This document shows positions 8,308 to 45,287 of a stretch of DNA of 64,000 nt, one piece after another (within the stretch, counting starts at the first letter, position 1; each line of letters starts with the position of its first letter). The stretch is taken from positions 2,232,001 to 2,296,000 of the forward strand of contig NC_089433.1 in the NCBI RefSeq assembly GCF_026210795.1. Reading direction: 5' to 3'. The notes below the pieces were generated by a model. The model was given only the letters and a program-made list of their open reading frames with translations. It did no database searches and was not told where the DNA came from. The stretch is from Rhizophagus irregularis. Lineage: Eukaryota. A program made the position numbers and the translations under genes.

Positions 8308-9790
8308 AAAATAATGCTTCTTATTTAAAGGAAAATCACAAAAATCAGACTTATGCTAAATAAATTGCATCTTATTTATTAGCAAATATACTCTATGAAT
8401 TATAACATTTATGTTTAAATATTATATTTAATAAATATAACTATTATATATAAATAAATTCTTTTCTAAATAAAAATAGTATTTTAGTTCTTAATAATAT
8501 TAAAATATATTATAATCAAAAACTTCTCAATTATTTAAACATTTTTAAAGTAAAAGTTAGAATTTTTACCACTAATTAAAACGGTCTATTTTGCAATTAT
8601 ACAATTATAAGTATATATTATCACATTGTTTTTGTACAAGTTTATTATTTTTGAATTTTTTTTTTGTAGTTTCGTGTTTTTTCAGGTTTTTTTTTAAATA
8701 TCATCTGTATGTGACGATCACATATCTTTTATTTTATAACACTTACCTATTATTGTATTAATGATATTAATGATAATCATATGATCTCTTAATTAACCAT
8801 ATGATGATCATTTTCATATGAGTTAATATACGTATTTGGTTTAATAATTTTGATGATAATCATGGCTTAGCTAAATATGAATTAACCACGTTATATTTAT
8901 GCAAAAATGCGGAGTTAAAAACATTTTTTTCCCATCGCTATTTTTTTATTGTTAAAATTTTTATTTTGGTTTCTAATTATAGCTGAAGAACAAGAATAAG
9001 TGCAAGAGCGAAAAGCGAAAGCAAGAGGATAACTTTGATACTTTTCCATGTGATTCCTTTTTAGAAGAATCAATTATTGATTATGATGATGAGGATTATG
9101 AGAAAAGTGACAGTGAAATAGTAGCAGAAATGGCTGAAATTCAAATTACTGAAACTGAAACTGAAATTTCTAACACTAGTTCCAAAGAATTGAGGAGTGC
9201 TCGAGTTTGGAAGCATTTTGAAAAACAGACAATTGAAGAGGAAAATGAAACAACTGAAACTTTTATTTTATGTAAAATTTGTGAAGGCCATTTCTCCGCA
9301 AAAAATTCTACCACAACTCTTGAACGTCATTTAAAATCAAAACATCCTAATGTATATAATAACTTAGAACAAGAAGAAACTAGGACAATACCTTGGACAG
9401 CTGAAACACATAAAGAGAAACATAAGCTTTTTGTCAATTGGATTATTACTGACCAACAACCATTTACAATTGTTGAGAATCAGAATTTTAAAAAATTTAT
9501 AGCATCTATTCAACCAAGGCATAAAATACCATCTCGACATACATTAAAAGATATGATAATGAATAAGTTCAAAAATGCACAGATTCAAATAAATAACTAC
9601 CTTCAACTCTCAACCTCTAAGATTTCATTAACAATGGACATTATCACGAAGTTAAACTAAGCATTTACCAACCATTTATTAAATGCTTTAAGAATATTTA
9701 ATTTAAGTGCTTATTAAACAAGTTTCAACGCAGCTTGTATTCGATAAGCATTATTTTTTTATTGCTAATTGATTAATAGAAATTAATATA

Positions 9791-10268
9791 CAGTCAGACC
9801 CCCATACAGTCACACCCTATACAGTCATACCTCTTTATAAGAACTCGATTTTGAGAAACGGTTTTAAATACTATCAAATTACCCCTTTATAATCACAATT
9901 TGACTATAATCACTATCACCGCATAATCCCAAACGGATATATCATTTCTATTAGTGATTAGACCTCTATTAGTCACATCATAATTTCGGCCAAAAAGCAA
10001 TTTCGCCCAGAATTACGAAACATATAATTTTTTCTTTCCTTTTTAGGAATTAATGTTACACGACATTCCAACACAAAATCGGCAAAAAAAAATTTTGTGG
10101 AACGGCTATCACCAAAAAAGGAAATATCCGTAGTGATCACATAATTTTATAAATTATAATTTACTAATTTCGGCCAAAATTAAGATATAGTACCTGTATA
10201 TAAGCACACCCCTATACAATCACTGATTTTATGGGAACCAATTAGGTGACTATATGGGGGTCTGACTG
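9791..10268. mobile_element. Tc1/mariner-pogo-type MITE, 478 bp
   Basis: 23-bp TIR CAGTCAGACCCCCATAYAGTCAC with 1 mismatch, flanked by TA on both sides. Confidence 0.9.
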
Positions 10269-10621
10269 TAATTAAATTACTTAAATTAATTATATAATAA
10301 ACACCATTTTAGTATTGATATTTTATTACGGCATAATTTATATTTTATTATTATATTTTATACATTTTTCTATTATATTACATATAATATATAGTATCTT
10401 TATATTATGACTAATTTACTTTTTCAGACCTTACTACTATTTAAATTAGAAATTTGCGAAATTCCATATATAATAGGATATTATATTCAGTAACAGCCAA
10501 AAAGAAACAAAATTAAATAATGCATTCTCTGGTTGTAGCAGAAAGTGCGGTATAAAAAAACTGAAGGCAGAACAGACCACCACAAGCCACAGATCATCAC
10601 TACATATAGAGACCAGGTCGT

Positions 10622-12410
10622 CTAAAAAAAAGAAAAATTGAAACGTTAATAAAAACGTTCCGCTAAAAGAAATATATTCAAAAAAAATTCTCCTTACCAA
10701 AATTCTACGCGTCCAAAGATCTGAGCGTCTAGAAAAAAGATAAATCAAAGCGTTAATAAAGCATTTCGTTAAAAAGAAATAAATCAAAGAAAAATTCTAA
10801 TACCAATTAAAATCTACGCATCCAATAATCTGATCGCCTAAAAAAAGAAGGATTGAAATGTCAGTGAGAACATTTTGCTAAAAGAAATAAATTCAAAAAA
10901 ATATTTTTGATTTTTCCTACCGATATTCCATACCAAAAGCCCGACCATCTAAATAAAAAAATTGAAACGTTAAAAACGCTTCATTCATTTCGTTTAAACA
11001 AATAATAAAGTAAAATAATAGCCCACCAAATCTAACATGTTCAGACCTGAAGAGCAAACTGACTAAAAAAAAGAAAGAAATGAATATGATTAGTAATCTT
11101 TGTTAAAAGAAATAAATTAAATATAAAAAAACTTACGAATTCGTGCCTAGGAAATTTTGAAGTTGACTAAAAAAAGAATAATAAATAAAGCGTTAATAAA
11201 CATTTTGTTAAAATAAATAAAAGAAAAAGTTACTTACCGAAATTTCACATCCAAAGAAGACTCGCCTAAAAAAAAATAAAAAAACGAAATTGTTAGATTA
11301 ACATTTCGTTATAATAAAAAAATTTAAGAAACAAAAATATATACCGTAATCCGCGTGTTCAAAGACTTAAAAAAAAAGAAGCTGTCTAAAAAAGAGAAAG
11401 AAAACGAAACATTAGTAAATGTTTCATTAAAGAATAATTAAAAAATAGCCCCTCTCCTACCAAATTCAAGTATTCAAAAATCCAAGCCGTCCAAACTCCA
11501 GAAACCAGAAAGATCCGCCTAAAAAAGAAAAAGAAACGAACTGTTAGTATGGTTCGTTAAAAACAAAAAAATTAGTAAAAAAAAATTAAGACTTACCGAA
11601 TTCCCAAGCCATCATCAATTTATTTTATTTTTAGTTAAGCTAAAAAAGAAAAAAAAGCGAATTGTTAATAACAGTTTGTTAAAGTAGTTAAATTAAGAAA
11701 AATAAAAAAAACGTACTTAAGACTCACGTATCAAAGAAACCAAGAGTCTAAGTGAAGTTGTCCCTAAAGAAAAAGAAAAGAAATGTTAGTGATATTCCCA
11801 AAATACACAATTCCAACTCCTTCAATTTACAACTTACCTTTCATCAAGTTTTCTAGCCGAAGTCTGAGTCCAGGTGTTGTCTCTATAGAAAAGAATGAAA
11901 TGAACATTAGCATTAGTAACATTCTTAAATAAAAGAAAAAGTTCCAGCTTCACACATCCCTTCCCATAAAGTTCTTTGCCGAAATCCAAGCTCAGGAAAA
12001 AGGAAGAAATAGTAAAGTTTCATAATGAAACTTACCATTATTGAGATTTAATATTACTGCCCGATATTTCAAAAAAAACCTACAAAAAAAAAATAGCAAA
12101 AGAAACGTTATTTAGCGTTTCTATTGAAAAAAAAGGAAAAAATGATAAGTTTCACTATGAAACTTACCATTACACTTTACAGAAATCCCGCGTCCAAAAA
12201 ATTATTTCTTGAACTTACACTGGTTTAACATTTTCTTTACCGGTTAGACTATTTTTTTGTAGGTTTCAGTTTTAACTAGTTTCGAAGTGGTTTTCTACAA
12301 AATAATAAAAATGAAGTAAACGAAATCTAATAAAAAAAACAAAATTAGAACCAAAGAAATGAAAAACGATAATAAAAAAAATCAATCAACTTACCAACCA
12401 GGAACATTCC
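10622..12410 (-). ncRNA. Putative multi-micro-exon, apparently non-coding transcription unit (at least 14 introns)
   Basis: Repeating minus-strand donor (GTAAG/GTAGG/GTAT), branch (YTRAY), polypyrimidine tract and TAG acceptor about every 105-135 bp. Transcription is not shown; the call is from splice signals only. Confidence 0.6.
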
Positions 12411-15400
12411 TAAAGAAAAAAATTGATTAACTTTTGTCATTTCACTTGAACATGAAAGGTTTTATAAAAATGTTTTTTTTTACAATTTCATTGAATTAGC
12501 TTTTAGCTTTTTAACATTTTATACGTGATAGTAAATTTTTCTAACGAATTTCTATATAAAAAAGATTATCAATTGATCAGATCGATAATCATAATTGATA
12601 CTGGAACTAAAAAAAAAAATAAAATTTTTTTAGTTTAAATAGACCAAATAGACCAAAATTGTATATATATAGTATATATATATATTGAATATGATAAATG
12701 TTAGAACTATATGTATATCATATGATATACTACAGCGAAATATCAAAACAGTTTTGCAGGTTTTGACAGTTTTGCAGTTTCGCATTTTATGATTTTACGA
12801 AACTAATTTTGGTAGTTTTGCATATATTACACTGCAAAACCCCTACATTTTTAGTTTAAAAAAAGAATTTTTGGTTTTTTTTATAGGTGATTTTAACTTT
12901 TAAACAGAAGGGGAAAGGATAAAAAAAAGGAAAGAACAAAGGAAAAAAATAAAGGAAATGGAAATGGAGAGAGTGAAAGGAAGGAAGAAAAATGGGAAAG
13001 TGAGAGAGAGGAAAGGAAAAATAGAAGAGTGAAAAAAGTGAAGCTTCGTTGAAAAAAAAATTTGTAAAAAAAAGATTAATCTATATCACGTGATACGCGT
13101 AATACTAATTTTGGGACATGATTTTTTTTTAACAAGTTTATATTATTACATCAAAGATAAGCCCCTAAGACTTAATATAAAAATAACAAAATCTAAATGT
13201 TTATATTCTATGTTTTTTTAATAATAAATTCAAATGTTTAATTGATATTTTTTTTTTCATAGCAATTAATAAGTATTAATTTAAAATATTTTTTAAGTGT
13301 TTTGTTAAAGTAGCAATTATGAAGTATTTAATAATTAATATTTAATTTGTAATTTATTACAATGATAAATAAATGCTTATTTTAAATACAAATAGATGTT
13401 CATGAAACATTAAGCATTCAGTAAATATAAAATTTAAGCATTTATTAAATAATTTGTGTTTGATGAATACAAGTCTAACATTTGATCAACTTCGTGATGA
13501 TGTGGTCTACAATTACCTCATTAGGAATTTTAGCAGTAACAATTCATTTTATAAAAGATGATTGGCAATTTGATCACTTTGTATTAGATGTATTGTATGT
13601 TCCTTCACCTCATACTGCTTCAGTAATTAAAGATTCAGTTGTTGAAATTATTTCAGAATTAAATATTGCAAATCGATTAATTGGAATTACCAGTGATAAT
13701 GAAGCAAAGATGTTAGCTGCAACTCGACAAATTAAAAAAACTCTTAATTTATCAGAATTTCGCCATTATCGCTGTGCAGCACATGTGTTGAATCTGGCTG
13801 TTGAGGCAGCACTTAATACAAGTATCGTTCCAAATTGTGTTAAAAAGTTACGTGCATTTATTAGTACAGTGAGAAATTCACCAAAGCAGATGGATAAGTT
13901 AAAGGAATATTTTCAAATTGAAAAAATTAAATTTAAAGCACCGCTTCCAGATTGTGCTACGAGATGGAACTATACTTTCTATATGATAGATCGAGCATTA
14001 GAAATTAAGCCTCTTTTGACTCATTTAATACCAAATTTTTCATCATTATCAAATAATTGGCCAAGTGAGGAAGAGTGGAATGTACTCACTATTCTAGCAG
14101 ATTTATTAGCTCCTTTTGCATCAGTAACAAAGGTGATATCTGCTTCTAATTACCCAACTATTGGTGAAGTTAAATTACTTTTTGAAGGTATTAGAGTTCA
14201 TTTAAATTATCCTCGAGGTGAAGATTTTATTTTACAAAACCAAATAGATGAAATGAAACATGTTTTTACAAATTATTTTGATGAAATAAATGAGGCATTA
14301 CATGTTCCAGCTTTTTTTGATCCTCGCTATAAAAAATTAGCATATAGTAATATGTCTCAAAATGATATTCTTGAACCAATTTGTAGAGCAATGGCCAATT
14401 ATGAAGAGTCAACTGATGATACTTCTATACCATATCAACCTATTCAGACTTCACAACGTCAGCTAATAAATTTATCTCCAACTGAAACACGAAATTTTTT
14501 TCGCAATTTGTTAATGCCAGATCAAACTCCACTGCCTATTTCAAATGAATTGGAATTTTATTTTAATTCCAATTCGCCAGGTGATGAAATAGTTCCTTTA
14601 GAATGGTGGAAAAACCATACTATGGAATACCCAATATTATCAAGAATGGCGCAAGATTACTTAGCAATAATGCCAACTTCTGTTCCTTGTGAACAGTTTT
14701 TTTCAATTGCAGGAAAACAATTTAGTCAAACATGTAACAGAATTGATGCTAGTACAGCACGAGCATGCTTATGCTTAAAGTCTTGATTAGAACAAAGGAA
14801 AATTGAATAAATATTAAAGACTTTTTATTTTATTCTTTTATGTAATTTTTACAATTTTCTTTTTATTCTTTTTAAAATCATGTGTATTTATTATTAAATT
14901 GATTATTAAAATTACAAAATTAACATTTATACAAAAACATGATTGCAAATAAATTATTAAATTTCAAAGTGAATTAAAATATTTTAAAAAAGCTGCTAAT
15001 GAAAAGAAATGAAAAAATATTATTAATAATAATTAGTGTCCATTTATAAAATGAAACCCATTCTTAAAAAAAGTGAAGTATTAAATTGAAAAATCCTCCT
15101 TTACACATAAACATAAATGAGTGAAATAAGTTAATGAAAATATGTCAAATTCGTTACTTTTGTTTCTTTTTTTAAGAGTTTTATATATAAAATGCTTGGA
15201 AGAAGGCTATCTTTTTTTTTGGATTTTTCAATAGGCGTGTAAGTGGGAAAAATGATTGTTTTGGTAATTTTGGCCGGCATTACGACATTAAGAAATTATA
15301 GTAAGAATTTGACAATCATGATGTAGATCAATTTATTTATCGTTTTGTGAGTTAGTTTTTATAAAGATCATCATTAGATTATTAGATTAATAACGTTATT

Positions 15401-15439: not shown

Positions 15440-15852
15440 GACTGGGTCAGTCTCAGGACCGGTCCTACTGCGTCAAGTAAAAATGAAAGACCGCGGTCCG
15501 GTCCTACAAGTCCTACACTGGTAAAAAAATGATTTATCCTACACATATCTTACACATATTGGGTACTCAAAATGTAGAAAATCATACACAAATAATACAC
15601 ATATCATACACATATCGGGTACTAATATATATATCATACATATATCAGGTACCTGATAGGTATACTATATATATAAGTACCCGATATGTGTATGATATGT
15701 GTATTATTTGTGTATGATTTTCTACATTTTGAGTACCCGATATATGTAAGATATGTGTAGGATATGTGTAGGATAAACCATTTTTTTACCAATGCTTAGG
15801 ACTGACCGATGCAGGGAGGAAGTAGGACCGGTAGGACCGATGACCATCTTTA
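15440..15852 (+). mobile_element. Probable right end of the hAT element (GGACC/GGTCC subterminal repeats, terminus GACCATCTTTA)
   Basis: Clustered GGACCG/CGGTCC motifs downstream of the transposase; the reverse complement TAAAGATGGTC resembles TAGAGATG-type hAT TIRs. I did not find the matching left TIR. Confidence 0.55.
15516..15794. mobile_element. Fold-back MITE, 279 bp, CACTG terminus (CMC/CACTA-like)
   Basis: CACTGGTAAAAAAA ... TTTTTTTACCAATG; nearly the whole element is a palindrome centred on ATCAGGTACCTGAT. Confidence 0.85.
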
Positions 15853-16398: not shown

Positions 16399-19300
16399 TG
16401 TACACGTAGTGTGTGGACACGTATCACGTGACTTAATATATTTTATATCATGTGACTTTAAACTGCGATCAATTTTTATTATGTAAAATCAATTAACCAA
16501 TTACAATAAAATGCGCCTAAATAAATGCGCGCCTAAATAAATGCGCCTAAATGTTAATTAACATTTTGACATGTCTTCGCGTAATGCCCATACTGCTTAC
16601 ATTTACTGCACTTTTGACCTTTTGTATCATTTGTAAAGTCTTCTACAATATTTGAAGTATTGTTGTCTTCTATTACATTACTATTGCTAACATCTTTTAG
16701 AACCCATTTTTCTCTATTTAAAACTTTTCAATGCTTGATATTAGCCTTTTCGGTGGCCGACCCTTATGCTTAATAACAACGGGATTAATAACATCAGTAA
16801 AGTTTTCCGGTTCCAGTCCGCTCTTTACATCATAAATAAAGGCCTTGAAAATATTTAACAATTCTTGTTGCTTATCACTTTTAAGGGCACAGTCAATAGC
16901 CTTTTTCGATAATCCAGCCAATTCTGCGTACATAGCTTTAGGCGAGTTTACGGCTGGTTGGGATGGTTGAGAGCCGTGTGAATCAATCTGAATAGAAAAG
17001 AAATGTTGGAAAGTGATAGGATTTTTGAATGGTATGTTATCTTCCGATTGTATCTTATCACATACTGGGATAAAAGAATATTGTTGTAGGAGATCGTTCG
17101 GTTCAACATCAGGATTTATATACCATCGATTCGGAATCATACATATGTGGAAGGTGGCGAATCTAGAGTAGGTACCAACACAGAAAAAGTGCCGACATAC
17201 CAATCCCTTATTAATTAAAAGAAGATAAGTGCATAAATGCGTGCCTTCATTGAGTAGAATTACGTAATGTCTGATTCTCCGTATGCCGGTCGCTCGTACG
17301 TTCCATACTTCGAGGATTGCTTCCATCGGTATAGTTGAAACCAACGATCGCAAAAGGATTTGTCTTGTATCTTGCTCTTGTTCTCTGATTCTTATACTTA
17401 TTTCTTCATTATCGGTTTCTATCTATAATCGTAGGAAACGTAGAAATCGATCAAAAACAATGAGATTAGTAGATCCAAATTTTGTAACTTGCCCTTCGCA
17501 AGGTTATATCCTATCTCGAATAAATTTCGAAATGATTATCTACCTCCATCAAATGACGCCAATCCGTGATCTGACTAATATCATAACACACAGATTGATT
17601 CATTTGACTTCTTTATTTCCCGAGCATTGTTGGAGTTAAAAATTCTTTGATAATAACATCCACTTGATTGAAGAATCTGGTATTCAGCATCGGCATACCA
17701 ACCGTTGGTAAGGCATCTCGTTCAATTTCGAATTGCTCGAAATGTTCGTCATTCTTAACGTGATCATTAATACTAACCAACAGATTGCATAACGATGTAG
17801 AACGATCTACTTTGCCGTGCATATGACTATTTATAGATTCAATTCGCTGTGTGCTTTGAGCACTGGCGGTAAATCTGTTACGAATCCAAGGTACCGCCCA
17901 CGAATTCTTAGTACTATACAGGGTATCAGTCAAGTACTTAACCGCTACTGGATATTGTTTAACTAATTGTTTCCATCGAAGTTCGAATAATTCTTCGCAA
18001 AGAGAATTCCAACATACATAAAATTTACGATGGAATTCCTTGAACTGACTACCTAGATTTCCTTTAAGCTTTTTCCGAAGGTTCAGATCTATATGAAATA
18101 TGCACAGCAGGTGCAGAGCATTGGAATAATATCCTTGATCGAACGAACCAAAGAAGGATCGGAATCAGAAAAAATGACTCCCGGAGAAACACCCGTTTCG
18201 TTAAATATACTATCGAATATCCACCGATAAGTATCTAGTATTTCGTCCTCAATTATTGCGCACGCTACGATCCTGGTTTTGTAGTTATTATCGATTATGG
18301 TTACGATACAAAGGATCATTTGAAATCAGTTTGTGTTATAGGTGCTATCAACTATAACGACATCATTGTGCTTACTATATAACTCTCTTTGTGTAGGTGA
18401 CATCCATAAAAAAGAAATCAACCTCCTCGAGATTGGATCTAATCGAGTCTTTACAACCCAAAGCGGCTCCAAGTTCTTCCAGTCCATCAATCGTTGGAGC
18501 ATCTGAGGGGTATCCTCATCTCCCAGATTATGTTTTTGTCGAAACTGATAAACCGCGTTATACAATTTTTTTTTGTGAATAGGCTGATCTGGATAGTCAT
18601 GCCTTAATAGGGGATATATAGATACCGAATCCATTCGCCCTTTAATGACGTACTTCTCTATATCAGCCAACATTTCCTTTGTCAACTTCCGAAACTGCGG
18701 AGCTATTTTTTGAATTATCGGGATAAGCAGATGATTATGTTCGTTATTAAACGAGTTTACTTTTACAACTCCTGTTTTCGGATGAGTGACGTTAAGTTTC
18801 CAAGGGCATAGTATTTGTTGGGAATAAGCATTGCGTTGCTTTGTTGAATCCGATGTAGTTTGTGGATTATGAGACCCAGATTTTGCGCATTCGTAAGTGG
18901 CCCTTCGCATTACACCTTGAATAGTTTCACTTGTTCTGATCTTATAACTGAAACCCTCTTTTGACGCAAACCTATGTAACCAACTTTTGAAGTCTTCCCA
19001 GTCGGTAAAAGTAAGCTCAGAGGTTAATTCCAAAGAATCGGATGGCTCATCTGGTCTATCAGACTCATCTGTTTCGTCATCAATGAATGATTTCGGGTCC
19101 ATATCATTATCAACGAATGATTTTGGGTCTATTACATTATCAACAAATGAATTTGAGTTCGTTTCATTAAGCTGTTAGGCTGATTCTTTAATTAGATGAT
19201 TGATAACAAATAAGATAGAAGAAACATATACAACAAAGATAGAGAAAACATATATAACGAAGGAAAGAGGGAACATGTAACAGAAGATAGAGAAAACATA

Positions 19301-20732: not shown

Positions 20733-23362
20733 TAGTGTTTCGAATGGATCAAATCAGATCGGATTTGAGATGAATCCGATCTGATCCGAATTCAGATCAA
20801 AAAAAGTTGGATTTGATCCGATCTGAATTCAGATCAAAAATAATTGGATCCGATCCGATCTGAATCTGAAATGAGCTTGATTCGATTCGGTCTGAATCCA
20901 ATTCAGATAAAACTGATCCAGTCCGAATCCGATCCAAATCAGAAGTTAAAAAAACGTTTCACAACGTTTTTTAAAGATTTATTTAATAAAAACGTTGCGA
21001 AACATTTTTTATTTCAATTTAAACGAAAAAAAACCGTTGCAAAACGTGTTTTTAATGAATTTAATAAAAACTGTTTTGCAACAGTTTTTTAAATCATTTT
21101 AATATAAACCGTTGCGAAATGATTTATTTAACTAAAAAGAACTATTTTGCAACAGTTTTTTTAAATTGTTTTAGTATAAACTATTGCGAAACGGTTTATT
21201 TAATTAAAAAGAACCATTTCGCAATGGTTTTTTAAAATATTTTAATATAAACCGTTGCGAAATGGTTTATTTAATTAAAAAGAACCGTTTTGCAACGGTT
21301 TTTTTTAATGATTTTAATGTAAACTGTTGCGAAATGGTTTATTTAACTAAAAAACCGTTTTGCAACAGTTTATTTAACTAAAAAAACCGTTTTGCAACAG
21401 TTTATTTAACTAAAAAAACCGTTTTGCAACAGTTTATTTAACTAAAAAAACCGTTTTGCAACAGTTTATTTAACTAAAAAAACCGTTTTGCAACAGTTTA
21501 TTTAACTAAAAAAACTGTTTTGCAACAGTTTATTTAACTAAAAAAACTGTTTTGCAACAGTTTATTTAACTAAAAACACCATTTCGCAACGGTTTATTTA
21601 ACTAAAAACACCATTTCGCAACGGTTTATTTAACTAAAAACACCATTTCGCAACGGTTTATTTAACTAAAAACACCATTTCGCAACGGTTTATTTAACTA
21701 AAAACACCATTTCGCAACGGTTTATTTAACTAAAAAAACCATTTCGCAACGGTTTATTTAACTAAAAAAACCGTTTCGCAACGGTTTATTTAACTAAAAA
21801 AACCGTTTCGCAACGGTTTATTTAACTAAAAAAACCGTTTCGCAACGGTTTATTTAACTAAAAAAACCGTTTCGCAACGGTTTATTTAACTAAAAAAACC
21901 ATTTCGCAACGGTTTATTTAACTAAAAAAACCATTTCGCAACGGTTTATTTAACTAAAAAAACCATTTCGCAACGGTTTATTTAACTAAAAAAACCATTT
22001 CGCAACGGTTTTTTTAACGATTTTAATATAAACCATTATGAAACTGTTTATTTAACTAAAAAGAACCGTTTCGCAACAGTTCTTTTAATTGTTTCAATAT
22101 AAACCATTGTGAAATGGTTTATTTAATTAAAAAGAACCATTTCGCAACGGTTTTTTTAATTGTTTTAATATAAACCGTTGCAAAACGATTTATTTAACTA
22201 AAAAAACCATTTCGCAACGGTTTTTTAATTGTTTTAATATAAACCGTTGCGAAACGGTTTATTTAACTAAAAAGAACCGTTTTGCAACGGTTCTTTTTAT
22301 TGTTTCAATATAAACTGTTGCAAAACGGTTTATTTAACTAAAAAAACCATTTCACAACGGTTTATTTAACTAAAAAAACTGTTTCACAACAGTTTTTTTA
22401 ACGATTTTAATATAAACCATTGCAAAACGGTTTATTTAACTAAAAAAACCATTTCGCAACGGTTTTTTTAACGATTTTAATATAAACCGTTGCAAAATGG
22501 TTTATTTAACTAAAAAGAACCATTTTGCAACGGTTCTTTTAATTGTTTCAATATAAACCATTGCGAAATGGTTTATTTAACTAAAAAGAACCATTTCGCA
22601 ACGGTTCTTTTAATTGTTTCAATATAAACTGTTGCGAAACGGTTTATTTAACTAAAAAAACTATTTCACAACGGTTTTTTTAATGATTTTAATATAAACT
22701 ATTGCGAAACGGTTTATTTAACTAAAAAGAACCATTTTGCAACAGTTCTTTTAATTGTTTCAATATAAACCATTGCAAAATGGTTTATTTAATTAAAAAA
22801 AACCATTTTGCAACAGTTTTTTTAATTGTTTTAATATAAACCAGTGCGAAACGGTTTATTTAACTAAAAAGAACCATTGCGAAACGGTTTATTTAACTAA
22901 AAAGAACTATTGCGAAATGGTTTATTTAACTAAAAAGAACCGTTTCACAACGGTTCTTTTAATTGTTTTAATATAAACCGTTGCGAAACGGTTTATTTAA
23001 TTAAAAAGAACCATTTCACAACGGTTTTTTAAAATATTTTAATATAAACCGTTGCGAAATGGTTTATTTAATTAAAAATAACTGTTTCACAATGGTTTTT
23101 TATTGTCTTAATAAAAAACGTTGCGCAAAACGTTTTTTATTTTCTAAGATTCAGATCCGATCCGGATCCGATCCGAATCTGTTTGAATCTAATTCAATTC
23201 AATCCGATTTGAATGAATAACTGATCTGATTCGATTCGATCCAAAACGGATCAAATTTTTTTGATTCAGATCGAATCACGGATCATAAAAAAGCTGATCC
23301 GATCTGATCCGTTTCGGATCAGATCCGCGGATATGACGGATCAGATTTTTTTCGGAACACTA
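20733..23362. mobile_element. Non-autonomous hAT element, 2630 bp, filled with a minisatellite
   Basis: TIR TAGTGTTYCGAA; perfect 8-bp TSD ATTATGGA (20725-20732, 23363-23370); GATCC/GGATC pentamer subterminal repeats. Confidence 0.95.
20950..23140. repeat. Palindromic 32-bp minisatellite
   Basis: Unit CCGTTTCGCAACGGTTTATTTAACTAAAAAAA, period 32 (e.g. 21771 and 21803). About 20 head-to-tail copies at 21350-22010, with alternating-orientation units in the flanks. Confidence 0.95.
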
Positions 23363-24794
23363 ATTATGGAGATTATTAGTGTTTGGCTATTATCGTTATG
23401 CATTTGAACATCCGATAGTTTATACTATACCTGATGCTAACATTCAAACTTCTACATGTAAATGGAACCTCCTTAGTACCTCATTAGAAAAATCCAATAA
23501 GCGTACGGACTTTCTTAACTGCAGCTAATTGGTTTTGTTAATTAATGTTGTGTTCGTAAGATCCTACAACTTGGTTAGAGTGGAATGCACAACACTGGTT
23601 CTAGTCAAAAGTACCAAGAAGGGACGATCTGAATATTTGATTTTACTTACTTTACAGGAACTTATAATAATTTTTCTTTTTTGATTATGATGTAGTGGAT
23701 CCTATGATAACTTTGTGAAGAAAGAGAGATATTTACGCTAAGATAGGAAGTTTAAAGCTCTCCTTACTCTCTGAGCAAAAGTAATCACCTGACAGTGCAC
23801 ACGTAGGATTCTTTTATGCATTAGTAGTTAATGATATTAAATAGTTATTTTACTTATTTAGAGTTTTATACAATTGTAATTGGCTTTAATTTTATTATTT
23901 AATAAACTATCAAATACATTGTGGTTTAAAAAAAAAAAAAAATCTATTTTTTTTTAGCACCAAGTTTCCAAAAAAAAATAATTGTGACATATAAATCATG
24001 TGATAGGAGGAAAAAATTTTCCTTTCCTTCCTTTGTTAAAATTAGCAATACTTTAGTAATAAAATGCATTTTTAGTAATAACTTGGTTAATATTAATACT
24101 AAAAATACAATTTTATTACTATTAGATTTATTTTATTAAAACAAATTTAACTGATGAATCTAAATTCATTAAATTCAATTATTGAATTACTTAAAAATAG
24201 AGTATATAAGATAAGAAATTTTGAAGATATTCTTAAAATGTGTTAATTGTACTAATTTTTTAGTGTAATTTTACTATTTTAGTCAAATAAAATTGATTTT
24301 TTTATTAATTGAAAGTTGTTTAATAAGATTAAAACTATTTATATATTAATTTTTATAAATATAAATATTTATAAACAATGTCTTATTATTTTTCTGTTTA
24401 GAATATAATTACTTTGATTAAATGAAATCAACTTTTTATAGTTTAAATTTCGTCTAATAGTATACATGTGGCCTGATGTGGGATCCTTTATTAGATGACG
24501 AATGGTTCAGTAGTTAATAAATTAATATAGGTTTTATGTTGTATCATGTATATAATATTGATATACTACTTATTTTAATAATTTGTTGAATATGCTGCAG
24601 CAATTCAAAAAAAAAAATCAACTTTTTTTATTATAATTAATTCTCTATATAGTTACTTTCTTTAAAATTAAAAAAAATTAATATGATCATAAAAATACTA
24701 TATCTGATATAATATAACAGAATTCCACTTATTTATAATAAAAATTACTATAAAAAATTGGCTATTTACTAATAATTTTACCTTATTTTTTTCT

Positions 24795-24935
24795 TAAATT
24801 CTATTAGTTAATTAGTTAAAAAGGAAAAAAATCATAACAATATAATATAAAATTTTCTTTTATAGTAAGATTTGCAAAGAATTTTATATATGATTTTTAC
24901 TTTAGGTACAAGTGGAATCTTATCTTATAAGTAAG
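24795..24935 (+). repeat. Dispersed repeat family copy (others near 25430-25800 inverted, 40410-40575, 42905-43105)
   Basis: Shared CTATTRGTYAATTRRYYWAAAAGGAAAAAAATCATAA ... TTTTACTTTA ... ATCTTATAAGTAA blocks. Confidence 0.7.
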
Positions 24936-26405
24936 CAAATTCTAGTATAAGCCAAGAAGTTTTTTTAATAAACTTATTAATAACTTGAATCAATGTAAAT
25001 GTGCTTATAAGGAATATCTAAAGTAATTATAAAGAGTAGGATTAAAACTACTTGTATATTAATTTTTATAAGTGTAAGTATAATATAATACTTGTAAAAA
25101 ATATATAATAGTATTAACTTACAAATTTTTCTTTTTTTTATTTGCTAATTTTTTTTATTAATTAAATAGGACCTTAAATAATACTAATATATATATATAT
25201 TTTTTTTATTGCAGTACATTTGCAGTTTTATTAAAGTAAAAAGAATTAAAAGAATCTATATACAAAATAAAGTTTTAAAAATAGCTATTTTAATATGATT
25301 AAACTATAAATTACTTATTATACATATAGTATTCTATATATATATTGTTAAGTAATTATTTGATTTTATAGGTAGACTTTATTTAGAAATAGATTCTTAT
25401 CTTTAATATTTGGTGATCGCAAGCTAACTTCTACACGGGATTCTTAACGCTTACTTATAAAATAAGTCATCGAAGCTTAAGGTAAAATTTATAATTGTGA
25501 ATTTTTAAAAATCCTACTATATAGGTTCTTTACAATAAAAGGGGGGGAAACTGCTAAAAAAAAATTTTTTTAGTTAATATTAATTCTGAATAAATTATAA
25601 TATTTAGAGTGTTTTTAGTATATAAATATAAATTTAAATTTTTTTGGTAGTTTTCCCTTTTTCTATTGCAAAGAGCTTATATTACACCTAAAAAATTAAA
25701 TGTTACACTAATTTGTATAATTTTTTTCCTTTTTAAATCAATTAATCAATAAGATCACTAATAAAATTACTAGTAAATTTGAAATTTTTCCTGGAGACCT
25801 TTATTAAAAATAAACAGGGTCTTCACTATACTGCAAATAATAATACTAATATAACTTACAAATAAACTTTAAATATTAAATAAAAATATATTTTATGATA
25901 TAACTTTGTCAATATTAATGCTAGAAATATGAGTTTACTATTATTAAAATTCTCTCATCAAGACAAATCTAATGATATAACTCCTGTATAACCATTCATT
26001 TGAGAAGAAGTTTCTGGATTACTTGGATGGCTTATTAGGCATATGACTGCTATTTATGTCTGCTTGTTTTACCAAAATTTTATTAACATTAAATTATTAG
26101 TTGTATTAAAAATAAGGTATATAAGATAATAAAATTTTGAAAATATCCCTGTAATATGCAACTTTTAAAAAATTTTAATATAAATTCTAAGTAAAAGCAA
26201 ATTACAAAAAAACTCAAGAAAATAATAAATTAAAAAAATATATAGTTATAATTATAAAAAAGGAGTTTACATCAAACTTCATAGTTTTAAAAACCTGATG
26301 ATATTTTTAAAAATTGTAAGATATATATATAAAAACTCAAAAAAATAAAATAAGTTAAAATAAATATATATTTATTATTAGAAAAAAGAATTTACATTGT
26401 ATATA

Positions 26406-39658: not shown

Positions 39659-42349
39659 TTTTAAATTATTTCTTTATGATATAATCATTGAATAATGAAT
39701 TAATATATTTTAATATTTAAAAAAAGTTGGTAACTTTTAGCAGGTTATTGTATATATTTTTAAAATTTTTAATATAATTAATATAATTAAAGTTAAATTA
39801 TAAGATATTAACATTATTTTAATATTTATTTAGTGATTATAAAATTACAAAATAAAGTTTTAAATTTGTTATTAATACAAATTAAATAGTAATTTTATTT
39901 TTACCTGTAGCACATTTAAAGATAAAAATAATAAAAATAGTAAAACTATAATTATGTATATATAGGACTACATAAAATTCTAATTTATTAAGTACTAAAC
40001 TACTTGTTATTTCAAGATTAAGATCTTATATATAAATTATTAGATAGAAATTCTAAATAAAAGTTAAATTCTGTATAGAATAAATCTTTTTTAAAGATAA
40101 TTTTCTTATTTCAGTCTATGCCAGTAAGTATTTAAAAGATTAACTAAAACTGTAAAATGAAATTTAGATTAGAATAAAAAAATTCAGAGTAAAATTTTAT
40201 AAATTAAAAAGGGGAAAAAAATAAAATTCTAATAACAAGTAATCATTATAATATTCTATTCATCCTGTCTGTAGCTCTTTAAAATTACACAGATATTTAT
40301 TATCAGTATATAAGCCTTCTTAATAATAACTGAATTTCAGTTAAAACTAAAACTCTTCTTACTTATAATAAAAATCATTGTAGAAAATTAGCCCTTTACT
40401 AATAATTTTTATCTTAAATTCTATTGGTCAATTAGCTAAAAAGGAAAAAAATCATAACGATATAATATAAAATTTCTTTTTATAATAAGATATATATATA
40501 TATATATATTTGCAAAGAATTTTATATATAATTTTTACTTTAAACTAAATGACCTATCTTTAATAAGTAAGCGGAATTTTATGTAAAGTATCTTTTTTTA
40601 GAAATCTATAAATTTTAGAGAATTAAATTCCATATTAGTGACTTTGTTCAAATCAATCTAAAAGTTGTAATATGTAATTAATTTTGAGTATCCATGTTCT
40701 TAAATAATTTTGAAAGTCTTGCATTCTGTTAATGCAAGCAATAATTGGATAGAGTTTGCAATAAAATATAAAATTTCTGTTATTATAGATTTTAGTATAT
40801 CCATCAAGATCATTTAAAAGTTTTTGCATTTTTTGCATTACTTTAGATTTCAAGTTGCTGAAAACTATTTCACTAGTATTTTTTTAAGAAAAACAGTCTA
40901 TACTTCTTCATTAAATTGTCTTAGAGCTGTTTTGTTAAAATAATTTAAAGTTTAAAACAGTAAGAGTAATATACTTCTTCTGTAACTTTAATTTTATTGC
41001 AGCCACTTTATTCCATTTTTTAAGGTAATTTAGGATATCGATTTAGAACTATTTGAAAGAAATATTGTAAACTACTATTTTTTATTTTTTAAACATTATT
41101 TTTGAAAACAGATTCATAACAAGTCATAATAATAAAACTAGAACATGCAGTTGATGCTTTTACTTTTTAGTATTATTATCCTTAGACTTATTACCATTTT
41201 TTAGAATATTTTTCAAAGTAATATTCTTTTACTTATTACTTCCATTAGATATAAAAGAATTTAGCTTGCTATTATTACTACCTGCATTTCATAATACTAT
41301 TTTAACATAACTAATTTATTTATTCTTTTCTTTTAGGGTAAAAGGTTCAGCTTTTGCATCTAGAAGATTTATTTAATAGTAAATTCTGCACATTCTCTAA
41401 CTAAGGTTGCAGGCTAAACTCCATAATAAATGTGAAACTTGGTAAAACTATATTAAAAATTTAATAATAAATTGGTAAAACCTAATTATAAAAATTATAT
41501 GTAATGCCAGTAATGGTGAAACTATAATAAATTCTTATAAAAAAATTGTCAAAATTGAGGTTTAGATGTTTTGCCAAATTCAAAAACTAATTTAGCTCGC
41601 ATCTATATTTCTAATTGATATTCAGGTTTTTCAATAATTTCCATTCTCATCAATAATGATTTCTGTATAACCAGTTAATCATTGGCTGTATTTATTATTA
41701 TGTACTTATTATATGACTTTTATTATATTGTTTTATAAACCTTTAAATATGCAAAATTATTCAAAAAACTGTAAAAAAGGTTAAGGACTATCACCATATT
41801 GGTGAAATGCATTTCTGGCTGACTTTAGTTTAAACTAAGTTTTTTAAAATTATCTTTATATTTTAAAAATAGGTTCTTTAACTTATATTGTACATTAGAA
41901 TGGAAATTGTTAAAAACTTAAAGTTTCAGTTGCATTTTTTTGACAAAAAGCTTTTATAATAAAACTGAAAAGATCATATAACTCCTCACTTCTTTGTTAG
42001 CAACTGAAAAAATTAGTTTTCAAAAAATTCTTTCTGATTTATATAATTAGTGGTAAGAATTTTCCCATTATAATTAAATTTAAATCACAATAAAAATACA
42101 TTACAGTTATTATTTTAATTGACTTCTACAAGCAAATAATATAATAAATATATAGAATAATAGAGTATAAAAGGATTTTAAATATCTCTTAAATAACTTA
42201 AAAATAATATATAGTAAAATGCATTTTTAGTAATAACTCAATCAATATCAATATTAAAAATGCGATTTTATTAGGATCCATTAAAACCCCAAATATTACT
42301 AAAACAACTTAGATCCTGTATAATTAAAATTTCAAAATGTGATATCTTG

Positions 42350-42656
42350 TAGAGGTACGATTCGAGTTCTAAAAAACCATCTGAATTGAATTCGGATGCT
42401 TATTAGCACATCCGAATTCAATCCAGATCGTTAAACTAATCTTAATTTTGGCTGAAATTGTAATTTTGGGTGGAATTAAAGTTTCAATAATGAGAATTAG
42501 TTCTGCCTAAACTTTTAGTACTAGTCTAAGCTAACTATAATGCTGGTCAGAATTAAAATCGGATCAATCCATCAAAAATAATCAGATACAGATATTCAAT
42601 TTCAATTCAGATGAACGGATCAATCTGAATTGACTAGATTACAGATCATAACACTA
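42350..42656. mobile_element. Decayed hAT MITE, 307 bp
   Basis: Perfect 8-bp TSD ATATCTTG (42342-42349, 42657-42664); degenerate TIR TAGAGGTACGAT / TAGTGTTATGAT; GATC/TCCG-type subterminal repeats. Confidence 0.8.
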
Positions 42657-43580
42657 ATATCTTGGTTAATATTATATCTAAAAAGATGAATTATATATCA
42701 AAATGTTTATCTTGTTGAAATGAATTTAACAAGCCAAAGATTATTAAACTCCAATCACTGGATCTCAAGATAGAAAATTTGAAGCTAAAATCTATATATA
42801 ACTTTATACATTTGAAACAGAAATTAATTATAAGATTTATACAAATTCAAATCTGAGTTTTTTTAGTAATGTTCAGGATCCTGATCTGCTTACTTTTAAT
42901 AGAAGACTCCAGAAAAAATTTCAAATTTACTAGTAATTTTACCAGCAATCCTATTGGTTAATTGATCTAAAAAGGAAAAAAATCATAATAACTTAGTCTT
43001 TTTAGGTGTAATTTATCTATATATAGTAAGATCTTCAAAAATTCTCAATTATAAATTTTACTTTAGATTTTTGGTGACTTATCTTATAAGTAAACGAAAT
43101 CCTATTTTATTACTATTGAATTTATATTATTATATGAGCTGATTTGTCTACCTTTAATTAAAATATTGATTTTGTTACATTTTTATTATACAAAATACTA
43201 AAAAATTTTCATTTAATGTTATTATACTATAATTTGGTAAATATTTCTTCTAAATTAATATAATTCTTAGCACTTACTATATATGTTAAAAATTTGTATC
43301 TCAATTTTAAATGTAAATATCTCCAGATCCAATAATCCAATTGGCAAGCTCTTTTTTTGCTCATATAGTCCAGATCAAGGGCTTTCCAAAGAGCCTAAAT
43401 TTATAAAAAAATGGATTAGTAAATCTCAAGATATTTGCATTTAAGCATGTTAAAAAGTTTGTACCTCAACTTTAAATATAAATATCTCCAGATCTAATAA
43501 TTCAATCGGTGAGCTCTTTTTTCACCTATAAAGTCCAGAACAAGGACTTTTCAACAAGCCTAAAATTATAGAAAACAGAA

Positions 43581-44362: not shown

Positions 44363-45287
44363 TAGAGCTCCGAATGGGTCAGGTCAGGTCAGGTCAGGTT
44401 AATTGATAAACCTGACCTGAAATTTTTTTTCAGGTCAGGTTATATCAGGTTGTCTGTTTGACCTGACCTGACCTGAAACCTGAAAAATTTTTATTAAAGT
44501 ATTGAAAAAAAATGGTACAAAACTTTTTTATTAAAATATTGAAAAAAAATATTGCAAAACGTTTTTTTTAATATAACATTATGAAAAAAATGTTTTCGCA
44601 ACGTTATTATTGAAATATCAAAAAAAAAACGTTACGAAATATTTTTTTAATATAATATTATGAAAAAACGTTTTCGCAATGTTTTTTCTCGAAATATTGC
44701 GATTCAACATTTTTATATTAAAATCATATAAAAAAGTGAATCCCAATACTGCAATTCACTTTTTTATATTGATTTTGTATAAAAAAAGTGAGTTGCGGTA
44801 TTGCGATTCACTTTTTTATATAGATTCTATATAAAAAAAGTGAGTTGCGGTATTGCGATTCACTTTTTTTATATAAAATCAATATAAAAAAGTGAATCGC
44901 AATATCGCAACTCACTTTTATTATATAAAATCAATATAAAAAAGTGAATCGCAATATCGCAACTCACTTTTATTATATAAAATCAATATAAAAAAGTGAA
45001 TCGCAATACCGCAACTCACTTTTTTTATATAGAATCTATATAAAAAAGTGAATCGCAATACTGCAACTCACTTTTATTATATAAAATCAATATAAAAAAG
45101 TGAATCGCAATACTGCAACTCACTTTTATTATATAGTAGAATCAATAGTTTCAGGTCAACAGGTCAATCAGGTCAGGTCAATCTTCATACCTGACCTGAA
45201 TTTTTTTTAAAAATCTCATACCTGACCTGAATTTCAGGTCAGGTCAGGTCAGGTTACCTGAATTTGGCTGACCTGTTCGGAGCTCTA
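44363..45287. mobile_element. Non-autonomous hAT-like element with an internal palindromic minisatellite
   Basis: 20-bp TIR TAGAGCTCCGAAYRGGTCAG; CAGGT pentamer subterminal repeats; internal units of about 52 bp AAAAAAGTGAATCGCAATAYYGCAACTCACTTTT; no TSD visible. Confidence 0.85.

Follow-up and report, generated by a model that had tools for sequence, protein, structure and literature searches.

Introduction

snoRNA host genes (GAS5/UHG) and mirtrons are characterised by many short, poorly conserved exons, by the lack of an ORF and by introns that are better conserved than the exons. Schistosome micro-exon genes are built from symmetric exons whose lengths are multiples of three, and they produce secreted proteins that are varied by exon skipping. 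Introner-like elements of fungi are dispersed insertions into unrelated genes and form families of similar introns with hairpins.

The closest described transposons are the Plavaka elements. PlavakaB elements of the CMCT clade have CATCA..TGATG termini and target duplications of 2-3 bp (PMC12730594), and Plavaka elements are prevalent in R. irregularis (PMC11075540). Some Plavaka elements also contain accessory genes with a predicted function in modifying chromatin or DNA, namely TET/JBP in basidiomycetes and PAG1-3 in red algae (PMC12730594; 10.1101/2025.02.11.637652). Transposon-derived lncRNAs have been described in Blumeria hordei (PMC10648671).

Comparison with the R. irregularis locus

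The locus described here lies in a 64-kb stretch of R. irregularis DNA, called the window; the species is taken from a host F-box protein of the window, which clusters with proteins of R. irregularis and R. diaphanus. The locus comprises an array of introns borne by a transposon. Like snoRNA hosts and mirtrons, the array has short diverged exons, no ORF and introns more conserved than exons, but it has no Rfam family match and no Dicer-length hairpin, its introns are tandem paralogues, and it is carried by a transposon. It resembles the schistosome genes in its run of 28-58-nt exons and differs from them in its exon lengths and in having no ORF. Its similar hairpin introns recall introner-like elements; the array introns, however, stand in tandem, with none found elsewhere in the 64-kb window.

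The carrier shares with PlavakaB (PMC12730594) the CATCA..TGATG-type termini, a 2-bp duplication and short terminal inverted repeats, and it occurs in the same host species, R. irregularis, in which Plavaka elements abound (PMC11075540). Unlike PlavakaB, it has no transposase, its left end reads TATCA, and its cargo is an apparently non-coding, spliced intron array instead of a TET/JBP or other protein gene. As with the Plavaka accessory genes, the array is a transcription unit added to a Plavaka element and might plausibly act against silencing, but those genes encode enzyme-domain proteins whereas the array has no protein signal. The lncRNAs of B. hordei are likewise non-coding transposon RNAs in a biotrophic fungus, and the array RNA lies antisense to an interrupted hAT gene; the abstract of that report mentions no paralogous-intron array, however, and the RNA of the window lies wholly in a nested element and has no sequence in common with the hAT gene (PMC10648671). 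No prior description of such an intron array was found in the full-text literature searched, to which most subscription papers do not belong, and curated TE libraries or supplements could contain the element. PMC8647823 and PMC11075540 were searched for terms on introns and splicing and mention neither, and the passages covered of PMC11952901 and 10.1101/2022.10.19.511543 held no relevant text.

We tentatively favour the reading that dense splicing is what the array RNA is selected for, and that it likely serves to counter silencing or to support expression.

The carrier element

The array lies in an insertion that interrupts a hAT transposase gene.

8983..9641, plus strand: 5' half of the hAT transposase with the BED finger (Pfam zf-BED; stretch given as 8983-9660), stopping at the D of an SLTMD motif
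9640..9641, plus strand: left copy of the AT target duplication (target ACATGT), from the hAT comparison
9642..13499, no strand assigned: non-autonomous PlavakaB-type DNA transposon of 3,858 bp, from termini, duplication, ORF lists and Pfam
9642..9653, plus strand: left terminal inverted repeat TATCACGAAGTT, whose first base departs from CATCA
9791..10268, no strand assigned: nested 478-bp MITE with TA duplication, from its inverted repeat and an empty-site joint 9788/10269 in run X15
13488..13499, minus strand: right terminal inverted repeat CATCACGAAGTT, from the sequence of the element end
13500..13501, plus strand: right copy of the AT target duplication, from the hAT comparison
13500..14786, plus strand: 3' half of the hAT transposase with the RNase-H fold and dimerisation domain (Pfam; domain stretch given as 13479-14786), beginning at M-W-S

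The 5' and 3' halves of the transposase are 69% and 85% identical, respectively, to the intact relative P0009. The D and W at the interruption are spaced by one residue in all 71 hAT relatives that match the motif pattern (112 relatives were screened), and from this spacing the inserted segment is 9642-13499 and the duplicated target AT. The duplication is 2 bp long, within the 2-3 bp of PlavakaB, a comparison based on one insertion. The right end matches the CATCA..TGATG type exactly and the left end in four of five bases, and 11 further bases of the ends form a perfect inverted repeat. The assignment to PlavakaB follows from the match of the duplication and of the CATCA-type ends. No internal ORF exceeds 116 aa and no Pfam match was found in the nine of 17 internal ORFs that were scanned, so the insert is taken as non-autonomous; it would be mobilised in trans by a Plavaka transposase partner. 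The nested MITE is presumably Tc1/mariner-like, judged by its ends.

Contigs from three RNA runs of three studies (X18, X19 and X20) and from one DNA-like run (X15), out of 24 runs listed, form the evidence on splicing given below. Those of X15 and X19 also bear on other copies of the element. Beyond 13503, one X15 contig carries a different flank at the right end of the element; this single flank, diverged array copies in X15 and X19 and two database gene models on separate contigs of strain DAOM 197198 may point to further loci, and no record joins the ends and the array elsewhere. Over 13166-13447 the summed contig depth of X15 is several-fold above that of the array, and both X15 and X19 have contigs that pass into other sequence at 13213, which suggests that this portion of the right end also occurs in other element families. 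The X15 joints at 10374/13049 and between array units were rejected as mis-pairings, their sides being mostly 21-27 letters long; no inverted repeat or duplication was seen at 10375/13048 when the joint was checked.

Other repeats occur in the window. A MITE-like 109-nt inverted repeat, 94% complementary, lies at 15535-15764 within a GC-richer repeat. At 44380-45275 a 52-nt unit that has inverted symmetry within it is repeated eight times in tandem, with TCAGG-type pentamer repeats on the flanks. The stretches 24000-26000 and 40300-43100 contain diverged, dispersed copies, in both orientations, of an AT-rich repeat.

The intron array and its RNA

The earlier note had drawn 14 minus-strand introns with GT..AG borders and a series of exon sizes. 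A sequence check found GT..AG at all 14 intervals and the same exon lengths, each at the place given. Strong minus-strand acceptors are concentrated here, with 18 of the 38 in the 64-kb window falling in the 10-14 kb bins. In the order of transcription, the features are as follows.

12895..13092, minus strand: putative promoter, with CACGTG at 13087, plus a leader rich in pyrimidines, both predicted from sequence with no RNA seen here
12395..12503, minus strand: most 5' exon seen in RNA (X20 record 20, X18 record 12), reading through the AG at 12410
12295..12394, minus strand: intron 14, with alternative acceptor 12327 (X18 record 12; X20 joint 12326/12395)
12080..12167, minus strand: intron 13, with its donor in a hairpin, a branch-point hairpin and alternative donor 12218; seen in RNA, with close homologues in L001, a soil metagenome contig
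11883..12035, minus strand: intron 12 as drawn, without RNA sighting; a diverged copy splices 11883-11964 (X19 record 16)
11519..11837, minus strand: introns 9-11 (11519-11596, 11640-11727, 11764-11837) with the 43- and 36-nt exons, from 'letters between' rows of X19, in diverged copies
10804..11489, minus strand: seven consecutive exons (34, 28, 36, 30, 28 and 41 nt and part of the 58-nt exon) with introns 3-8, in one poly(A) contig of 226 nt (X18 record 11)
10622..10803, minus strand: introns 1 (10622-10697, direct) and 2 (10729-10803, implied) flanking a 31-nt exon (X18 records 9 and 10)
10429..10621, minus strand: last exon as far as RNA reaches (X18 record 9, X19 record 13)

RNA cover ends at 12503, which says nothing about the start site. 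Two AATAAA motifs, at 10349 and 10327, could serve as poly(A) signals, and the donors at 12167 and 12035 sit in hairpins.

The three RNA runs contain a small portion of the words, as spliced RNA would. Their contigs support 12 of the 14 proposed introns; one more is implied, and one was not seen. Direct CT..AC joint rows are available for five (10622-10697, 10838-10920, 10949-11026, 11266-11344 and 11386-11460), contiguous record pieces give three more (11063-11136, 11167-11237 and 12295-12394), and 'letters between' rows, partly from diverged copies, give another four (11519-11596, 11640-11727, 11764-11837 and 12080-12167). The pieces of X18 record 11 fall exactly where seven consecutive exons predict, with 11063-11136 and 11167-11237 obtained by arithmetic. 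The implied intron, 10729-10803, corresponds to 30 unlisted letters of record 9, and record 10 enters it unspliced. Seven CT..AC joint rows stand among the joints listed, five at predicted introns and two at alternative sites (the 12218 donor and the 12327 acceptor); the DNA-like run X15 has no contig at any of the seven. The RNA contigs give neither strand nor level, their depth is about 2-7, and some pieces are unspliced.

Two details of the drawn layout did not hold. Intron 11883-12035 was not seen in the contigs of the runs examined, and X19 splices instead from about 11964, a donor that reads GG in the window copy. An acceptor had also been placed at 12410; X18 and X20 read through this AG, and the 15-nt exon is therefore not bounded there. 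Spliced contigs reach 226 nt and 259 nt and the junction-supported chain about 880 nt, above the 200 nt that define an lncRNA. X19 bears versions of the exons that have diverged, including, on our reading of the listed letters, one that carries a 1-nt indel, so several copies of the element appear to be expressed.

A layout of repeats and spacers, in which the exons would be antisense guides assembled combinatorially by skipping, had been proposed for the array. The alternative donors and the alternative acceptor in its 5' part would suit such a scheme, but no exon skipping is found among the joints listed: contigs take the exons consecutively and use alternative sites only in the 5' part. The exons are moreover paralogous to one another rather than foreign, and when each was searched against the 64 kb no meaningful match elsewhere in the window was obtained, the matches being short and of low complexity. 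The exons are decayed duplicates rather than captured spacers, and on the joints listed and the 64 kb searched we regard a guide array as highly improbable.

Paralogous introns, conserved splice signals and hairpins

The likeness of the introns was measured on 13 array introns (12295-12394 was left out and 11883-11964 substituted for 11883-12035) and on 21 host introns, these being candidates picked by pattern, without RNA proof, from which five doubtful ones of 26 had been dropped. Array pairs score 32.6 on average versus 22 for controls, and 29 of the 78 array pairs lie above the 99th percentile of 483 control pairs, in agreement with the earlier claim that the introns resemble one another. 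With single-base shuffles, 30 of 91 intron pairs exceed z 3 versus 7 of 78 exon pairs; the 483-pair comparison is the better control, because intron z-scores from such shuffles are inflated by T-runs. The paralogy of the introns also supports the proposal that an exon+intron unit was repeatedly duplicated. The TTTGGAYRCG-like core attributed to the exons is weak, with so few exon pairs above z 3; the exons share ancestry, exons 1 and 2 reaching z 10.6. No array-type intron was found elsewhere in the 64-kb window at E<3.

Splice signals are kept while exons diverge, as had been noted. All 14 introns retain GT..AG at a best-sibling identity of about 0.8, for which a rough neutral probability is 0.004, a figure inflated by ascertainment because the units were found through their splice sites; the introns are more alike than the exons. 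The pyrimidine fraction before the AG is 0.91 in the array versus 0.59 in the 21 host candidates. In about half of the array introns the branch point is enclosed in a short stem or covered by one. The hairpin is a modest feature: it reaches z<=-1.8 in 7 of 14 array introns versus 3 of 26 host candidates (z difference p=0.06), and stem length is 6.9 versus 4.9 (p=0.017).

In a further alternative the hairpin introns themselves would be the product, and the RNA would serve to release small RNAs from its introns, in the manner of a snoRNA host or of mirtrons, or as stable lariats. The better conservation of introns than of exons would agree with it, as would the branch-point stem: over 17 intron ends, 83.8% of 130 cells are paired, two-sided changes occur at six of eight pairs and none of 500 shuffles reaches this level, figures biased by a register chosen from one of the sequences themselves and by related aligned rows. 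RNAalifold, however, returned no consensus pairs on the same 17-end alignment. The Rfam scan of 9600-13600 gave only two matches, at E 1.6 and 2.7 and both outside introns, and so no known snoRNA family; the stems, of 4-11 bp, are local in most introns and do not join intron ends in the manner of mirtrons, no end-to-end hairpin of Dicer length being found; and several introns have no fold at all. The production of intron RNAs, one of the roles first suggested, thus has no positive support, and we consider it quite improbable. At 20950-23140, palindromic units of 32 and 71 nt stand in tandem arrays, and their hairpins look faintly like the branch-point stem, at E 3-4.7, which is not significant.

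The observed/expected CpG ratio is 1.37 in the array versus 0.38 and 0.53 in the hAT halves. This retention is not specific to the array, the values for a nearby MULE and for the whole window being 1.18 and 1.05, and C>T or G>A make up 38 of the 70 tallied X15 changes. The MULE-like transposase, at 16718-19174 on the minus strand, is broken into three ORFs, has a FAR1 domain and is not depleted in CpG.

Coding and structural potential of the exons

The joined exons have stops in every frame, and only four of the 13 exons have a length divisible by three, in line with the frame-inconsistent exons of the earlier description. In the 883-nt spliced chain the longest ATG ORF is 36 aa, versus a shuffle mean of 46 aa, and 69% of 300 shuffles reach 36 aa. 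The best ORF among 8,192 skipping isoforms is 145 aa, versus 96-140 aa in three shuffles. No stable fold was found in the spliced RNA, all 13 windows of 120 nt lying at z -0.7 to +1.7. With the ORF, isoform and fold tests near chance, the exons show no sign of protein or structured RNA. Seven of the 13 exons have the length 3n+1; as a possible remnant of coding, this excess is unconvincing at this sample size.

A decayed or small-peptide micro-exon gene is a further alternative. In its favour, five exons (11265-10804) keep a frame of 52 codons open, and this frame is found, at least partly, in all 11 database gene models over the array. These models differ in start codon, downstream frame and ending, and all of them leave out, wholly or almost wholly, exon 11345-11385, which is included in RNA and has an in-frame stop. 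The model P0007 has five matches among 1.84 billion representatives; its clusters comprise 11 sequences, all R. irregularis hypothetical proteins, of which two come from separate DAOM 197198 contigs. No relatives of P0007 were found among proteins of 208-2000 aa, no homologue outside the array family was found in the protein database clusters, and no Pfam family or ORF above chance was detected. Its Atlas structure model has a pLDDT of 0.43 and a best feature score of 0.83, and the structure matches were disregarded because of this low confidence. We read the 11 hypothetical proteins as forced models; against symmetric exons and an open frame as expected of a micro-exon protein gene, this origin is improbable. 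The transposon RNA is apparently non-coding, as judged from its letters.

Related sequences and a possible relict leader

One contig from a soil metagenome, L001, carries four to five introns of the array type, which reach 81% identity and are set between short non-coding exons that differ from those of the array, and the array design is thus not confined to the R. irregularis locus. A decayed, acidic, low-complexity stretch at 241-560 and an apparent small inverted-repeat insertion at about 580-870 both lie between its array-type introns. The metagenome pattern scan that gave L001 returned three loci in all, of which L002 and L003 are chance matches. Viral scans gave eight unrelated palindrome matches and no matches, respectively. 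The 21-nt palindrome that matches the donor hairpin lies in phage contigs (L004-L009 and L011), is mostly intergenic, with three loci in one 59.8-kb contig, and is operator-like and unrelated to the array.

The array may also be a remnant of the 5' leader, with its many introns, of a transposase or accessory gene that lost its coding part as the non-autonomous family arose; the introns would have boosted expression of the parent, and the RNA would be left over. Internal deletion is a common origin of non-autonomous elements. From a candidate promoter some 400 bp within one end, transcription would proceed into the element, as expected of a transposon gene, the acidic stretch of L001 is coding-like, and the window copy is decayed (GG donor, MITE). 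On the other side, the nine insert ORFs scanned hold no transposase remnant, at least 13 introns in one leader would be extreme, and several diverged copies are still spliced; the lack of a 208-2000 aa protein related to P0007 is a weak point here, a UTR being absent from proteins anyway. As the RNA would start at the position of a transposon gene and the window copy is decayed, we hold a relict leader, the main rival to selection for dense splicing, to be possible, though unlikely.

Dense splicing as the proposed selected trait

The element is a non-autonomous DNA transposon with a heavily spliced, apparently non-coding RNA, as the earlier note had supposed; its PlavakaB-type ends, the RNA contigs and the lack of any ORF beyond chance all agree. 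Dense splicing that evades or tunes silencing is the best reading we infer. The introns are paralogues, likely multiplied through tandem exon+intron duplication, and the array was likely retained for the act of splicing rather than for any product. Transcription would begin at the candidate promoter near 13090. Dense and efficient splicing would mark the transposon RNA as host-like, and this marking would shield the element from RNAi and methylation. Studies in other organisms are consistent with such effects: in Cryptococcus, introns raise RNA levels cumulatively (PMC3744415), and poorly spliced transposon RNAs trigger RNAi, which is recruited by stalled spliceosomes (PMC6232588), while in C. 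elegans nuclear RNAi is obstructed by introns (PMC5554785).

Some points speak against selection for dense splicing. Selection may have acted in the autonomous parent and not on the present RNA, the window copy being decayed by a dead donor (11964) and the MITE insertion. The hairpins over the branch point and over two donors could also slow splicing and so attract RNAi.

A bolder and doubtful form of the dense-splicing reading is that, in arbuscular mycorrhizal fungi, Plavaka elements are equipped with a non-coding 'splicing shield' dedicated to this end: optimised hairpin introns, multiplied in tandem, whose sole job is to be spliced, so that the RNA of the element is marked as self and escapes RNAi and DNA methylation. 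If true, this would be the RNA-processing counterpart of the protein anti-silencers in other Plavaka elements. Even as a relict leader, the array names a part of the unclassified repeats of R. irregularis, which make up about 30% of the genome (PMC11075540), and accounts for spurious 'hypothetical protein' models. If splicing is the selected trait, the family would offer a natural multi-copy test of whether transposons gain introns to pass a self/non-self RNA check, in which array-bearing and array-less copies in one genome could be compared for methylation and small RNAs.
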